Assembly: GCA_964291495.2 (NCBI GenBank)
Contig: OZ219872.1
Span: 352,001-416,000 of the forward strand
Source of the DNA: Dehalococcoidia bacterium
GTDB taxonomy: Bacteria; Chloroflexota; Dehalococcoidia; UBA2979
Reading direction: 5' to 3'
Length of the DNA: 64,000 nucleotides
Part shown: one piece after another, positions 1 to 49,346 of the stretch
Layout: each line of letters starts with the position of its first letter
How positions within the stretch are numbered: the first letter of the stretch is position 1
Position numbers and translations under genes: made by a program
Notes under the pieces: model-generated
Databases searched by the model: none
Told to the model about the DNA's origin: nothing
Seen by the model: only the letters and a program-made list of their open reading frames with translations

Positions 1-570
1 GACGAGCACGGGAACGGGATCGATCTGCTCGACCAGCTCGTCGAGGCGCAGGCCGCGCAGCGATCGGGAGACGTGGCGCGCCGTGGTGACGGTGGATTGG
101 ACGGCGAAGAAGCTGGCTCCGGCCTCCTTCGCGACGGGGGCGAGGCGCTTCGTGTTCTGCGGCGTGGCGCTCACGGCCGCAACGCCGCCGAGCTTGATGA
201 TCTCCTCGATGCGCCTCCCCACGAGCTCGTCGCGGATCGGCTGCGAGTAGACGTGCTGGATGATCTCGGTCGAGTGATCGAGGTTGGCGGCGGCGATCTC
301 CTCGTAGATGCCGTCGGTGTCCTCGTAGCGGGTGTGCAGGCCCTCGAGGTTGAGGACGGCAAGCCCGCCGGCCTTCGTGAGCGCTGCCGCGAAGGAGGGG
401 TCGACGACGGCGTCCATGGCCGAGGCGAGGATCGGGACGGGGAAGGAGTGTGCGCCGAGGGTGAAGGTGGGCTCGACGAGGTCTGGGTTGGTGGTGACGG
501 CGCCGGGGACGATCGCCACGTCGTCGAAGCCCCAGGCGCGCTCGAGGCTCTTGCGCTCTACTGCCGTCAT
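1..570 (-). CDS. guaB3: GuaB3-family IMP dehydrogenase-related protein (5' part; runs off the window start)
   Basis: Manual translation from ATG at 570: MTAVERKSLERAWGFDDVAIVPG...PILASAMDAVVDP...GGLAVLNLEG...VQSTVTTARH, typical GuaB3 motifs. SD GGGGGAGGG upstream. Absent from the ORF track because it has no stop in the window. Confidence 0.9.
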   Translation of the reverse strand, partial: MTAVERKSLERAWGFDDVAIVPGAVTTNPDLVEPTFTLGAHSFPVPILASAMDAVVDPSFAAALTKAGGLAVLNLEGLHTRYEDTDGIYEEIAAANLDHSTEIIQHVYSQPIRDELVGRRIEEIIKLGGVAAVSATPQNTKRLAPVAKEAGASFFAVQSTVTTARHVSRSLRGLRLDELVEQIDPVPVLV

Positions 571-752
571 CGCCGTGGTCCCTCCCCCGTCACGCTCAGG
601 TGACGCCGTGCGGCGGGGACGGCAACCGGGGAGAGTGCCTGGAGGAGCAGATACACAAAGACCCCGCCACGGGGGAGGGGTCCTGCTCGGGATGCACCCG
701 AGGTCGTCTGTTGCCAGGCTGTCGCATGGGTCCCGCCACGGTCACCCTGCTT
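571..752 (-). ncRNA. Candidate structured cis-regulatory 5' leader (riboswitch/attenuator-like) of guaB3
   Basis: Hairpins GGGU..ACCC, CUG-GCAA-CAG and CUCGGG-UGCAU-CCCGAG; terminator-like GACCCC..GGGGUC-UUUGUGUAU; 11-nt perfect complementarity of 669-679 to the SD region 580-590. Confidence 0.5.
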
Positions 753-758
753 TTGAGA

Positions 759-787
759 ATGGTAGGGCCACCCGGATCGGGGGTCAA
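759..787 (-). promoter_or_regulatory. Sigma70-type promoter for the guaB3 leader
   Basis: TTGACC-N17-TACCAT on the minus strand. Confidence 0.7.
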
Positions 788-846: not shown

Positions 847-1572
847 CTAGCGCACCTCGCGCGCGTACCAGCCCGTCCAGACCGCCTTACGGCGGCGCAG
901 CAGCGCGATGAACAGCGGGTTTGTCCAGACCAGCACCCGCCACAGAGGCCACTTGTCGAAGCGGCGCGTCGAGGGCCGGACGCGCGGCTGGCGGATGAAC
1001 GCGACCTTGCGTCCCGTGTCCCGCGCGAGGCGCTTGAGGCTCCAGAAGAAGTCGACGTCCTCGCCGATCCACGCCGTCTCATCGTACCCGCCGGCCTCCT
1101 CGAAGGCGGACGCTCGGGAGAACTGCGCGGCGCCCTGCGCCATGCCCGTGAGCCGCGCGAGCAGGCGCCAGGCGCGCAGGTAGAACCTCGCGAAGCGGCG
1201 CTGCGGCCGGTAGTCCACGTCGACGGCGCCGCCGAGGCAGCTCGGGTCGCTCAGCGCCGCATGGATCGCCCGGAGGAACGTGGGCGGCACGATCACGTCC
1301 GCGTCGACGAAGACCAGCACCTCGCCCCTGGCATGCCGCGCGCCGGTGTTCCGCGAGCGCGCGATGCCCTGCTCCGGCTCGTGGACCACCGTCGCGCCTC
1401 CCACCAGCGCCACCGCCGCGGTCCGGTCGCTGCTGTTGTTGTCGACGACGATGGTTTCGACCGCCCCGTCGATGCGGTCGAGCAGGCGCGTTGCGGACTC
1501 CTCGATCGCATCGAGGGTCGCGGAGAGGTACTCCTCCTCATTGAAGGCCGGTACGACGATCGTGAACCTCAT
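847..1572 (-). CDS. Glycosyltransferase family 2
   Basis: IVVPAFNEE, VVDNNSSDRT, FVDAD (DxD) and GEDVD motifs. Confidence 0.9.
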   Translation of the reverse strand: MRFTIVVPAFNEEEYLSATLDAIEESATRLLDRIDGAVETIVVDNNSSDRTAAVALVGGATVVHEPEQGIARSRNTGARHARGEVLVFVDADVIVPPTFLRAIHAALSDPSCLGGAVDVDYRPQRRFARFYLRAWRLLARLTGMAQGAAQFSRASAFEEAGGYDETAWIGEDVDFFWSLKRLARDTGRKVAFIRQPRVRPSTRRFDKWPLWRVLVWTNPLFIALLRRRKAVWTGWYAREVR

Positions 1573-1646
1573 CGCAACGAGCGTACCCGAGCCGGCAGGC
1601 AGGCGGCAGGTGGCCCTGCGGAGTGCAGGTGCTACGATTCCTTGCG

Positions 1647-3314
1647 ATGGCTGAGACGGTCCTCGCCGCGGTCGCGTGGCCCTATGCGAACAGCGCGCTG
1701 CACGCGGGCCAGATCGCCGGTGCGTACCTGCCCGCCGACATTTTCTCCCGCTACCACCGCATGCGCGGCAACCGCACGCTGATGGTCTCCGGCTCCGACG
1801 TGCACGGCACGCCCGTCACGATCCGCGCCGAGGAGGAGGGCTCGACCCCCGAGGCGGTGATCGAGCGCGCCCACGCGTCCTTCCTCGACACCTTCGAGCG
1901 CTTCGGGATCTCGTTCGACCTGTTCACCTCGACGGGCACACCGAACCACGCCGAGGTCACGCAGGACCTCTTCCTGCGCCTCCACGAGCAGGGCCACATC
2001 TACGAGGCCGAGATGACGATGCTGTTCGACCCCGAGGCCGAACGCTTCCTGCCGGACCGTTATGTCGAGGGGGAGTGCCCCTACTGCGGCTACGACGGCG
2101 CGCGCGGCGACCAGTGCGACGAGTGCGGCCGGACGATGGACGCGCTCGAGCTGATCGGGCCGCGCTCGCGCCTTTCCGAGGCCACGCCGGAGGCGCGCCG
2201 GACGAACCACTGCTTCCTCAAGCTCAGCGACTTCAACGACCAGCTGCTCGAGTGGGTCGATCCGCAGACGCACTGGCGACCGGCCGTGCGCAACTTCACG
2301 CTCGGCCTGCTGCGCGAGGGGCTGCACGACCGCGCGATCACGCGCGACATCGAGTGGGGCGTGCCCGTACCCCTCGAGGGCTGGGACGAGAAGCGCATCT
2401 ACGTCTGGTTCGAGGCGGTGATCGGTTACCTCTCCGCGACGAAGGAGTGGGCGCAGCACTCCGGGCAGCCGGACGCCTGGGAGGCTTGGTGGAAGGACCC
2501 GGGGGCGCGGACCGTCTACTTCCAGGGCAAGGACAACGTCCCCTTCCACACCACCATCTGGCCGGCCATGCTGCTCGGCTACGGCGGCCTCAACCTGCCC
2601 TACGACGTGCCGGCCAACCAGTACGTCACGATCTCCGGCTCGAAGGCCTCGTCCTCGCGCAACTGGGCGATCTGGATGCCCGACTACCTCGACCGCCACG
2701 ACCCCGACCCGCTGCGCTACGGACTGACGGCGATGATGCCCGAGACGTCCGACACGGACTTCACGTGGGCCGAGTACGTGCGCCGCAACAACGACGAGCT
2801 GGTCGCGCGCTGGGGCAACCTCGTCCACCGCGTGCTGACCCTGACGCGCCGACACTTCGACGCGCGCGTGCCGGGCACGGAGGCGTCGCCCTCGCCGGAG
2901 TCGGCGGCGCTGCTGGCGCGAGTCGACGCAGCCTTCGAGGAGGTCGGCGCGCACATCGACGGGCTGCGCCTGCGCGCCGCGCTGCAGGGCGCGATGGGGC
3001 TCGCGCAGGAGGCGAATCGCTACCTCGACGAGCGCGCGCCCTGGGCGGCCGTGCGCGAGGACCGCGAGTCGGCGGCAGAGACGCTCTCGACGGCGATCCA
3101 GGCGATCGCCGGGCTCGCCTCGCTGCTGCAGCCGTTCCTGCCGTTCACCTCGCCGCGCGCGTGGGCCCTCGCCGGCTGCGAGGGCGAGATCGAGGCGGCG
3201 GGCTGGCAGCGCACGCCGGTAGCGCCGGGCACGCCGCTGCCCGAACCCGCGCCGCTGTTCCGCAAGCTCGACGACTCGCTGGTCGATGAAGAAGAGGCGC
3301 GGCTCGGCCAGTAG
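1647..3314 (+). CDS. metG: Methionine--tRNA ligase (short form, no C-terminal tRNA-binding domain)
   Basis: AWPYANSALHAGQ (HIGH-like), GSDVHG, Zn knuckle CPYC..CDEC, YVWFEA, GKDN, KASSS (KMSKS-like). Confidence 0.95.
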   Translation: MAETVLAAVAWPYANSALHAGQIAGAYLPADIFSRYHRMRGNRTLMVSGSDVHGTPVTIRAEEEGSTPEAVIERAHASFLDTFERFGISFDLFTSTGTPNHAEVTQDLFLRLHEQGHIYEAEMTMLFDPEAERFLPDRYVEGECPYCGYDGARGDQCDECGRTMDALELIGPRSRLSEATPEARRTNHCFLKLSDFNDQLLEWVDPQTHWRPAVRNFTLGLLREGLHDRAITRDIEWGVPVPLEGWDEKRIYVWFEAVIGYLSATKEWAQHSGQPDAWEAWWKDPGARTVYFQGKDNVPFHTTIWPAMLLGYGGLNLPYDVPANQYVTISGSKASSSRNWAIWMPDYLDRHDPDPLRYGLTAMMPETSDTDFTWAEYVRRNNDELVARWGNLVHRVLTLTRRHFDARVPGTEASPSPESAALLARVDAAFEEVGAHIDGLRLRAALQGAMGLAQEANRYLDERAPWAAVREDRESAAETLSTAIQAIAGLASLLQPFLPFTSPRAWALAGCEGEIEAAGWQRTPVAPGTPLPEPAPLFRKLDDSLVDEEEARLGQ

Positions 3315-14015: not shown

Positions 14016-14337
14016 CCCACCCACCCGCCCCGGATTCCTTCTGATGTGGGGGGGCTGCGCCCCCCACGCCCCCGCCGGATCTGCAGGCAACCGCAGGAGC
14101 GGCGCCAAGCGCGCCTCTTCGTGCGAAACGCGCCCCACGGACCTGGGTTGATCGGCACCTCCGGCCCCCTCTCCCCTCGCGGGAGAGGGCGGGGGTGAGG
14201 GGGCGCCGCGCGCCAGCGCGGCTACTCGAGGCGCCTGATCTCCGGGCAGTATGAGGGTGCGCCGCGCATCGTGGTGCTGGAGACCATGGAAAGCTGCGCC
14301 CTCCAGACCCCAGGAAGACCGAGGGCGGGTGGGTGGG
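14016..14337. repeat. Composite palindromic intergenic element (MITE/REP-like) with 15-bp inverted ends
   Basis: CCCACCCACCCGCCC (14016-14030) is the reverse complement of 14323-14337; internal GGGGGCTGCGCCCCC palindrome and a copy of the repeat below. Confidence 0.7.
14165..14203 (-). repeat. REP-like hairpin repeat CCCCCTCACCCCCGCCCTCTCCC-N-GGGAGAGGG, copy 1
   Basis: Reverse complement nearly identical to 42441-42476 and 49313-49346. Confidence 0.85.
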
Positions 14338-42440: not shown

Positions 42441-42476
42441 CCCCCTCACCCCCGCCCTCTCCCCAGGGAGAGGGGG
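42441..42476 (+). repeat. REP-like hairpin repeat, copy 2
   Basis: CCCCCTCACCCCCGCCCTCTCCCCAGGGAGAGGGGG. Confidence 0.85.
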
Positions 42477-49312: not shown

Positions 49313-49346
49313 CCCCCTCACCCCCGCCCTCTCCCCAGGGAGAGGG
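49313..49346 (+). repeat. REP-like hairpin repeat, copy 3
   Basis: CCCCCTCACCCCCGCCCTCTCCCCAGGGAGAGGG. Confidence 0.85.

Follow-up and report, generated by a model that had tools for sequence, protein, structure and literature searches.

We analysed the leader of guaB3, a gene of the inosine monophosphate (IMP) dehydrogenase (IMPDH) family, in a 64,000-nucleotide (nt) stretch of the genome of a Dehalococcoidia bacterium (assembly GCA_964291495.2, contig OZ219872.1, positions 352,001 to 416,000; hereafter the window, whose numbering is used throughout). Comparison of related leaders supports a conserved cis-acting regulatory element on the minus strand in front of the gene, and the reading that we favour, with about even confidence, is a ribosome-coupled attenuator that also masks the ribosome-binding site of guaB3. 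The initial annotation had proposed a purine- or nucleotide-responsive switch of a new or diverged class, with a terminator competing against a segment complementary to the Shine-Dalgarno sequence (SD). Every sequence element that it named (promoter, hairpins, repeats and complementarity) is found where it was placed on the minus strand. The cis-acting attenuator with a terminator-like hairpin and an anti-SD segment is supported by our data, whereas the metabolite-binding riboswitch is not, as neither a shared fold nor excess stability was detected. Leaders of 13 other genera of the same family turned our reading towards an attenuator: they share an SD-like run, an AUG (GUG in two leaders) and one or two terminator-type hairpins, with no common aptamer fold. 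The feature overlooked earlier is a short upstream reading frame with its own SD-like run and AUG, and with an in-frame stop beside the last hairpin.

Within the genus, the leader is strongly conserved. The DNA search covered 61 related genomes, and the leader was present in 17 of the 18 other genomes of the genus, with guaB3 downstream on the same strand at all 18 genus loci (the window's own genome, G000, included). One locus (G003) is interrupted by a contig end, and G016 has neither leader nor guaB3. A covariance model of the leader core (R1), made from the genus alignment of 17 leaders, gave exactly one match per genome in the genus and no credible match in the 80 family genomes outside it (99 genomes searched). 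The element thus occurs once per genome and always in cis to guaB3, which supports an attenuator. The promoter hexamers TTGACC and TACCAT (9 of 12 consensus matches) are invariant in all 17 leaders, and the site pointed out in the initial annotation is the only one in positions 1-2000, against 0.1 expected from shuffles. Transcription would start near A752. Two weak R1 matches, L038 and L039, were rejected as they are not near guaB3. A pattern scan of genome contigs gave 30 stretches, of which 16 are genus members and 14 match the hairpin 1 pattern only, none of these near guaB3; a pattern scan of metagenome contigs gave at least 119 stretches, and R1 confirmed none of the 80 loci listed (E up to 0.001), which added no leader of the genus type.

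Conservation, expressed as mean pairwise identity, runs in blocks (Table 1). The 5' domain stands highest, above even codon positions 1 and 2 of guaB3, and all nucleotides of hairpin 1, loops and bulges too, are invariant in 16 of the 17 leaders. Over the three hairpins, 98.1% of alignment cells are paired and three pairs show compensatory changes, a level that 0 of 500 shuffles reached. One of these belongs to the 10 pairs of hairpin 1 (U-A to C-G, in L017 alone), and two belong to the six pairs of hairpin 2 (C-G, U-G and U-A in one, C-G and G-C in the other), where 95.1% of cells are paired. Hairpin 3 has nine pairs and 99.3% of cells paired, none changed on both sides, and its variable loop position fixes the register. 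Judged by this pattern of paired changes, the leader helices are real. Two assembled contigs, X23 (256 nt, from an RNA library) and X15 (563 nt), match 708-765 or 710-765 with one difference each and diverge on both flanks; their source is relatives carrying the same hairpin 1.

The comparison across genera carries most of the argument. We took the 400 nt upstream of guaB3 in 40 genomes that represent 19 other genera of the family, and TTGACC-N16-19-TAnnnT was found before the gene in 35 of these 40 leaders. Most of the promoter-bearing leaders, undetected by R1, follow a common plan consisting of a purine run, an AUG 4-10 nt behind it, an internal hairpin and a last hairpin of the form CCCUC-loop-GAGGG, which has a UUGUGCGUA-like tail and is followed 8-15 nt later by the guaB3 SD. 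The combination of promoter, SD-like run and AUG 4-10 nt behind was present in 32 of the 40 leaders, representing 13 of the 19 genera. The runs themselves vary by genus (GGCGGGGA, CAGGC, GAGG, GGGGAG): nine genera have UGGCGGGGA, while CAGGC is found in genus g18, GAGG in g45 and GGGGAG in g19, all at a constant distance to the AUG. Because the sequence differs by genus at the same distance from the AUG, the run fits a ribosome-binding site better than a ligand-binding core. When AUGs were picked in 38 leaders (six representatives of the window's genus and 32 leaders from the 13 other genera), the AUG stood behind the SD-like run in 37, the 38th (L017) having GUG; L089, with a GUG candidate start, was left out of the picks. 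The last hairpin was compared over 11 genera, with 96.6% of cells paired and four covarying basal pairs (38 cells, 0 of 500 shuffles) around an invariant core.

The position of the first in-frame stop speaks for translation of the short frame. Among the 29 leaders of 11 genera that have the CCCUC..GAGGG hairpin, this stop lies -26 to +8 nt from the CCCUC in 19, against 5 of 58 cases when the two remaining frames are read (Fisher p 6e-8), and the difference holds by genus majority (7/11 versus 1/22, p 5e-4). Typical stops are found 6-13 nt before the last hairpin (g6, g10, g13, g19) or, as in g18, within the loop. By majority, 6 of 14 genera have Arg as the second codon (CGA, CGG, AGG, AGA, CGU), where 13% would be expected from composition (binomial p 0.006). 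In the window's genus the start codon is AUG in 16 of the 17 leaders; across the genera it is kept while its surroundings diverge, and the GUG of L017 is the sole variant at that place. Because the AUG is kept, the second codon favours Arg and the stops are placed in frame, we infer that the short frame is translated. A short frame with SD and start is thus present as in leader-peptide attenuators, and stop and hairpin stand in the corresponding arrangement as far as geometry goes. No run of codons for one regulatory amino acid was found in the leader peptides listed.

In the window, the short frame crosses hairpins 2 and 3, so that the terminator ends 68 nt past the AUG and the UGA stands 28 nt before the guaB3 ATG. 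The terminator lies within the frame in all 17 genus leaders. Frame ends are more variable: 11 leaders end 25-32 nt before the guaB3 ATG, three overlap it as AUGA and three stop just past the terminator.

Hairpin 3, for which the program scan lists a terminator at 674-662, is conserved together with its tail, is poor in U-tract and is the predicted terminator between the short-frame start and guaB3. To place it among the hairpins of its own genome, we surveyed perfect stems of at least 10 bp with a UGYGY tail within 4 nt, located at most 120 nt after the stop of a coding frame defined by third-position G+C content (GC3). The GC3-frame test replaced stop-to-stop frames, which are unusable for intergenic DNA in a G+C-rich genome, and a hairpin-plus-tail scan of the window only was too noisy. 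Hairpins with the UGYGY tail stood after gene ends in 20 of 46 cases, compared to 249 of 1286 for hairpins without it, and those with the tail resemble ordinary gene-end terminators, 20-70 nt past the stop. No U-tract or T enrichment after hairpins was found overall in this genome. The tails in guaB3 leaders (UUUGUGUAU, UUGUGCGUA) resemble those of the gene-end hairpins. By this comparison, hairpin 3 and its tail UUUGUGUAU, of a kind enriched behind genes, would belong to the local terminator type. The gene-end tails alternate U and G (CUUGUGU, UUGCGUU, GUUGUGCGU; for example at C5:1263090, C6:76909 and C6:40432 in G000). Hairpins of the form CCCCUC..GAGGGG recur 3 to 28 times per genome in five genomes (1-6 for a control pattern), and the CCCUC/GAGGG core is therefore not specific to guaB3. 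In Escherichia coli, a translating ribosome is reported to repress almost fully a terminator located a few bp past the stop codon, and terminators in the initial 100 bp of a coding region are reported to remain functional (PMC4824070).

A second level of control is suggested by the complementarity between the terminator and the guaB3 ribosome-binding region. The segment CCCUCCCCCGU (679-669), which makes up the 5' arm and loop of hairpin 3, is a perfect 11-nt complement of ACGGGGGAGGG (590-580), as the initial annotation had stated, and 0 of 2000 mononucleotide shuffles reach 11 nt. The anti-SD segment and the guaB3 site can thus pair, and this pairing and hairpin 3 exclude each other, as SD masking requires. 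Comparative support within the genus is partial: the complementarity is at least 8 nt in 11 of the 17 leaders and 6 nt in the other six, which keep CCCCUC/GAGGGG only. At the variable position of the loop, the two opposed bases can pair in 7 of the 11 leaders with a GGGGAGGG-type ribosome site (C:G, U.G, G:C, A:U). When enforced, the 11-bp anti-SD fold lies 3.2 kcal/mol above the minimum free energy (MFE) structure, with an equilibrium probability of 0.0026. The full-leader MFE structure (-84.6 kcal/mol) contains the terminator hairpin and pairs the guaB3 SD with the C-runs of the spacer, whose two C-rich blocks (635-628, 619-612) can pair with either the guaB3 SD or the 3' arm of hairpin 3. 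Hairpin 1 is also formed in MFE structures. The spacer between terminator and guaB3 start is 80 nt long, and the small hairpin at 605-588, directly before the guaB3 SD, carries the short-frame UGA (598-596) in its loop and is missing in some subgroups of the genus.

Two smaller elements of the initial annotation did not hold up among the relatives. The CUG-GCAA-CAG sequence, taken as a GNRA hairpin, varies in its 3' arm to UCG, CGG or CCG, and this arm is lost in most relatives. The repeat CCGUGGCGGG does occur at 741-732 and 672-663, and CCACGG at 578-573, with which each copy had been suggested to pair, is kept in just 3 of the 17 genus leaders.

Table 1. Features of the guaB3 leader and its surroundings, with positions in the window and mean pairwise identity in the genus alignment.
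Feature	Position	Strand	Identity	Details
DNA upstream of -35			50%	
Sigma-70-type promoter	759..787	(-)		-35 TTGACC 787-782, 17-nt spacer, -10 TACCAT 764-759
Promoter spacer			73%	
5' domain			97.7%	predicted start to AUG+6 (alignment columns 1-40)
Hairpin 1	724..750	(-)		GCAGGGU..ACCCAUGC; contains SD-like GGCGGGA 737-731 and AUG 727-725
Short upstream reading frame	596..727	(-)		43 codons, AUG 727-725 to UGA 598-596; putatively translated
Linker			72%	
Hairpin 2	686..702	(-)	80%	CUCGGG-UGCAU-CCCGAG; within short frame
Hairpin 3, terminator-like	651..683	(-)	91% (with tail)	GGACCCC-U-CC[CCCGU]GG-C-GGGGUCU 683-659, tail UUUGUGUAU 659-651
Terminator-to-SD spacer			67%	variable length
C-rich spacer blocks	612..635	(-)		CUCUCCCC 635-628 and UCCCCGCC 619-612; partly conserved in genus
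Small hairpin	588..605	(-)		CGUCAC-CUGAGC-GUGACG; formed in MFE structure; directly 5' of guaB3 SD
guaB3 ribosome-binding region and start	568..590	(-)		ACGGGGGAGGG 590-580, ATG 570-568
guaB3, first 190 codons	1..570	(-)	93%, 94%, 78% (codon positions 1, 2, 3)	start ATG 570-568; runs off the window's start; TIGR01304
GT2 glycosyltransferase	847-1572	(-)		same strand, upstream of guaB3; best NCBIfam match, below cut-off, TIGR04283 (mftF-like)
Methionyl-tRNA synthetase-like gene (metG)	1623-3314	(+)		divergent; judged by eye from translation

The identity of the gene as guaB3, already named in the initial annotation, was confirmed by TIGR01304 (E 1e-47 on the 190 amino acids inside the window). 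The full-length product in the genome has 383 amino acids and contains the motif GPGAACTSR. No canonical guaB exceeded the TIGR01302 cut-off in the 93.7%-complete assembly, the best match being guaB3 itself, so this GuaB3, which lacks CBS domains, is the sole IMPDH-family gene found in this assembly and probably provides the cell's working IMP dehydrogenase. The gene is single-copy in 66 of the 67 family genomes searched. The intergenic region between guaB3 and the gene upstream is 276 nt long. The starts of the GT2 glycosyltransferase and the metG-like gene are 50 nt apart.

Under the attenuator that we favour, transcription would start at the conserved promoter, and some 26 nt on the RNA would carry a weak SD (GGCGGGA) and the AUG of the short frame, partly locked in hairpin 1. 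If no ribosome followed the polymerase, hairpin 3 would form and most transcripts would end about 100 nt from their start (near 651-659). Any read-through RNA without a ribosome would have its guaB3 SD paired with C-rich leader segments and would be translationally closed. A ribosome on the short frame, close behind the polymerase, would instead block hairpin 3 and later open the pairings that mask the SD, and in this coupled state guaB3 would be both transcribed and translated. In most other genera of the family the same logic shows more plainly: the frame ends 6-13 nt ahead of the last terminator hairpin or within its loop, and this hairpin directly adjoins the guaB3 SD. Candidate signals would be the translation capacity of the cell, pausing dependent on guanosine triphosphate (GTP) at the alternating G/pyrimidine tracts, or a ligand or protein acting on hairpin 1.

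Several observations weigh against this reading. The peptide is not conserved, insertions and deletions shift the frame between subgroups of the genus, and substitutions in g13 show no third-position bias (by eye). All three frames are mostly open, and the length of the short frame is therefore uninformative in the window's genus. The geometry of a stop before the terminator is missing there, the terminator being inside the frame. GGCGGGA is a weak SD: at 820 constrained starts GGAGG was found 115 times (14%), GGCGG 72 times (8.8%) and GCGGG in 6.5%; furthermore, both SD and AUG of the short frame are partly paired in hairpin 1. The p-values given above overstate the case, as related genomes are non-independent. 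Some choices were also ours: the AUG was picked by hand where several were present (g8, g10, L104, L109), taking the one behind the purine run, and the last hairpin was defined by a regular expression, with 8 of the 40 leaders left out. Of these, the leaders of g15 (three), g4 and g11 conform loosely to the plan, their GUG or AUG frames reaching or crossing the hairpins, and g7, g9 and g16, whose genomes are AT-rich, have no leader of this kind. The signal from the RNA library is a single assembled contig of a relative over 708-765 and reveals neither RNA ends nor transcription. Lastly, hairpin 1 is conserved (97.7%) far beyond the needs of an SD and an AUG, and this extreme conservation is the main observation that a plain attenuator model leaves unexplained.

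The g15 leaders (L070, L071, L088) have a -10 TACCAT as in the window, but the -35 reads TTGCGC or TTGCGT, and the leader is longer by about 90 nt. Their GUG or AUG frame crosses a GACCCC..GGGGUC hairpin, with its stop about 12 nt ahead of a further hairpin.

Because the conservation of hairpin 1 is unexplained by a plain attenuator, we retain two readings in which something binds to it. In the one, hairpin 1 and the flanking GCGACA..CCUGGCA (~752-705) would be a small undescribed aptamer for a purine or nucleotide ligand, with the AUG either incidental or part of the expression platform, and the ligand would decide between the hairpin 3 terminator and an alternative pairing. We regard both this riboswitch and its proposed mode of action as unlikely, if worth keeping in view. 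The 97.7% identity of the 5' domain speaks for it, guaB3 itself reaching 93-94% in codon positions 1-2 and 78% in position 3, as does the preservation of UGGCGGGGA in nine genera beyond what an SD needs. Moreover, GUGGCGGG occurs in both hairpin 1 and the 3' arm of the terminator, and hairpin 1 could compete for the terminator 5' arm; guaB3, as the only IMPDH homologue, would be a natural target of feedback, and no known family accounts for the leader. However, RNAalifold found no consensus structure of the 5' domain in 38 leaders of 14 genera (in a sequence-based MAFFT alignment, not a structural one), and there was no excess stability in the 5' domain (z averaged over genera +0.05, with 2 of 14 under -1) or in the whole leader (z +0.67). 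In g18, g45, g19 and g8 other purine runs take the place of the supposed core, with an unchanged distance to the AUG; covariation in hairpin 1 within the genus amounts to 1 of 10 pairs in one sequence, and the in-frame placement of stops has no reason under a riboswitch model. In the other retained reading an RNA-binding regulator would act at hairpin 1 or at the tails in the manner of PyrR or TRAP, or a repressor would bind the imperfect palindrome at +8 to +28, the hairpins being the switch or ordinary terminators. A specific protein contact would account for the invariance of hairpin 1, with its loops and bulges, in 16 of 17 leaders, and the last hairpin combines an invariant CCCUC/GAGGG core with covarying flanks. 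Against such a protein-operated leader, which seems quite unlikely to us, stand the lack of a candidate regulator adjoining the locus (the neighbours are the GT2 glycosyltransferase and metG), the frequency of CCCCUC..GAGGGG as a common terminator type (3 to 28 per genome in five genomes) and the loss of the hairpin 1 sequence outside the genus.

The leader could also have no switch at all and be an ordinary long 5' untranslated region, in which hairpins and complementarities are by-products of C-runs and G-runs in G+C-rich sequence. It is true that 148 of 200 shuffles of the whole leader fold at least as well, that any CCUCC-like run complements any SD and that long open frames occur in all frames of G+C-rich DNA. 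We nevertheless consider this improbable, as the blocks are conserved well above neutral sites, helices covary and stops are placed in frame, and in 26 of 40 leaders from 37 other families a promoter-like match no more than about 90 nt from the start suffices. The least likely reading, and to us very improbable, is that promoter and terminator delimit an independent small RNA (sRNA) of about 100 nt, whose C-rich loop CCCCUCCCCC binds G-rich ribosome-binding sites in trans while guaB3 uses an unrecognised promoter of its own. Promoter and terminator are indeed conserved and the spacer behind them is 67% identical and of variable length, and the loop is C-rich and anti-SD-like. The element, however, is always in cis, on the same strand and before guaB3, no second promoter-like site was found in 1-2000, most other genera have the last hairpin so close to the guaB3 SD (8-15 nt) that a promoter would not fit between them, and neither the 6C model nor any sRNA family in Rfam gave a match.

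Between the attenuator and the ligand-based readings stands a bolder combination, in which hairpin 1 would be a gate of about 30 nt, responsive to a ligand or to GTP/ppGpp, on the initiation of the leader peptide. The G/pyrimidine tracts would then be GTP-dependent pauses that set the distance between polymerase and ribosome, and read-through would report the guanine-nucleotide pool. Elemental pause sites have the consensus G-10/Y-1/G+1, and alternating G/pyrimidine tracts lie 3' of the leader hairpins; the same tails are found at ordinary gene ends. We think it rather unlikely that this holds. If it did, the leader would represent a new class joining nucleotide sensing to ribosome-coupled attenuation in uncultured Dehalococcoidia, a purine counterpart of pyrBI attenuation with its own sensor.

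The device appears to be specific to one family, because none of 40 guaB3 leaders (L114-L153) taken class-wide from 37 other Dehalococcoidia families showed the window-type arrangement by eye. In 26 of these leaders a promoter-like match lies within about 90 nt of the start, which suggests short untranslated regions; nine are longer and five have no match. The promoters of other families are mostly a strong match to TTGACt-N17-TATAnT, and the short leader often begins with CTAATA or a CAATA-like sequence. Long leaders with other hairpins were seen in L115, L125, L127, L132, L134 and L140.

As the initial annotation had suggested, no known class fits the leader: the Rfam 15 covariance models gave no relevant match to it, with three unrelated weak matches in positions 400-1000 at E up to 10, none in 20 related leaders at E up to 1 and none in the whole window at gathering score. 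The ZTP-like fragments GGGUGAC..GGCG and CAGCCUGGCA were dropped as the ZTP model gives no match. Like the purine and nucleotide riboswitches (guanine/adenine, ZTP, PRPP/ppGpp ykkC, c-di-AMP, xanthine/NMT1), the leader stands before a purine-nucleotide gene and combines a putative terminator with SD masking; unlike them, it matches no covariance model, and no conserved aptamer fold was found. The 6C and C-rich-loop sRNAs have C-rich hairpin loops, and the element shares with them a size of about 100 nt and a C-rich loop complementary to G-rich ribosome-binding sites, but it is strictly cis-linked, has no Rfam match and has one C-rich loop only.

Of the known systems, the leader comes nearest in function to the attenuators of pyrBI and pyrE and, at a greater distance, to leaders of the trp type. 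The pyrBI and pyrE leaders of E. coli are subject to ribosome-coupled attenuation that is sensitive to uridine triphosphate. They share with the guaB3 leader a short frame without runs of regulatory amino acids, an intrinsic terminator (predicted in the guaB3 leader) inside the frame or at its end and a location ahead of a gene for nucleotide biosynthesis; in both, a ribosome close behind the polymerase is expected to suppress termination. In contrast, the guaB3 leader serves a purine (IMPDH-like) and not a pyrimidine gene, has alternating G/pyrimidine tails instead of a U-rich pause tract, folds its frame start in a conserved hairpin and has SD masking as a second level. The trp, his and phe leaders resemble it in having the SD and AUG of a short frame and, ahead of the structural gene, one or two hairpins plus a terminator (predicted in the guaB3 leader); in some genera, g10 for example, a 2:3-type alternative is open as well, the first hairpin's 3' arm being able to pair with the last one's 5' arm (by eye); different from them, the codon run for one amino acid is absent, the peptide is not conserved and the 2:3-type pairing is not general (absent in g13). 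The mgtA and mgtCBR leaders, as described in PMC3641672, are alike in being long and in that translation of a short frame is expected to decide between stem-loops and hence over transcription; they differ in having no sequence relation to the guaB3 leader and in belonging to another gene class, and the guaB3 leader shows no evidence of a ligand-sensing RNA part. Taken as a new variant of ribosome-coupled attenuation with SD masking, outside any named family, the leader is placed where we would put it at evenly divided confidence.

To our knowledge, control of guanine-nucleotide synthesis by a leader peptide or attenuator has not been described. In the open-access literature (without supplementary files), a link between guaB3 and riboswitches was found only in a general review, with no leader-peptide attenuation of guaB and nothing pertinent on a Chloroflexi RNA motif.

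Apart from the leader, the genome carries a dispersed repeat of the form TCCGGYCCCCTCTCCCC-loop-GGGAGAGGG, followed within a few bases by GGGTGAGGG, with about 276 copies in G000. Three copies lie in the window (14167-14189, 42455-42474 and 49327-49346, plus strand), compared to 0 expected from shuffles, and the repeat looks like a repetitive extragenic palindromic (REP) element or a miniature inverted-repeat transposable element (MITE).

A locus that looks like a riboswitch in one genus is resolved by comparison across genera into an SD, an AUG and a terminator, and the terminators of this lineage seem to carry tails of alternating U and G rather than U-tracts. At about 200 nt, the leader is a compact construct. 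If confirmed, the guaB3 leader would add a purine gene to the amino-acid and pyrimidine operons controlled by ribosome-coupled attenuation, and the case would come from Chloroflexota, a phylum in which almost no gene regulation has been studied.

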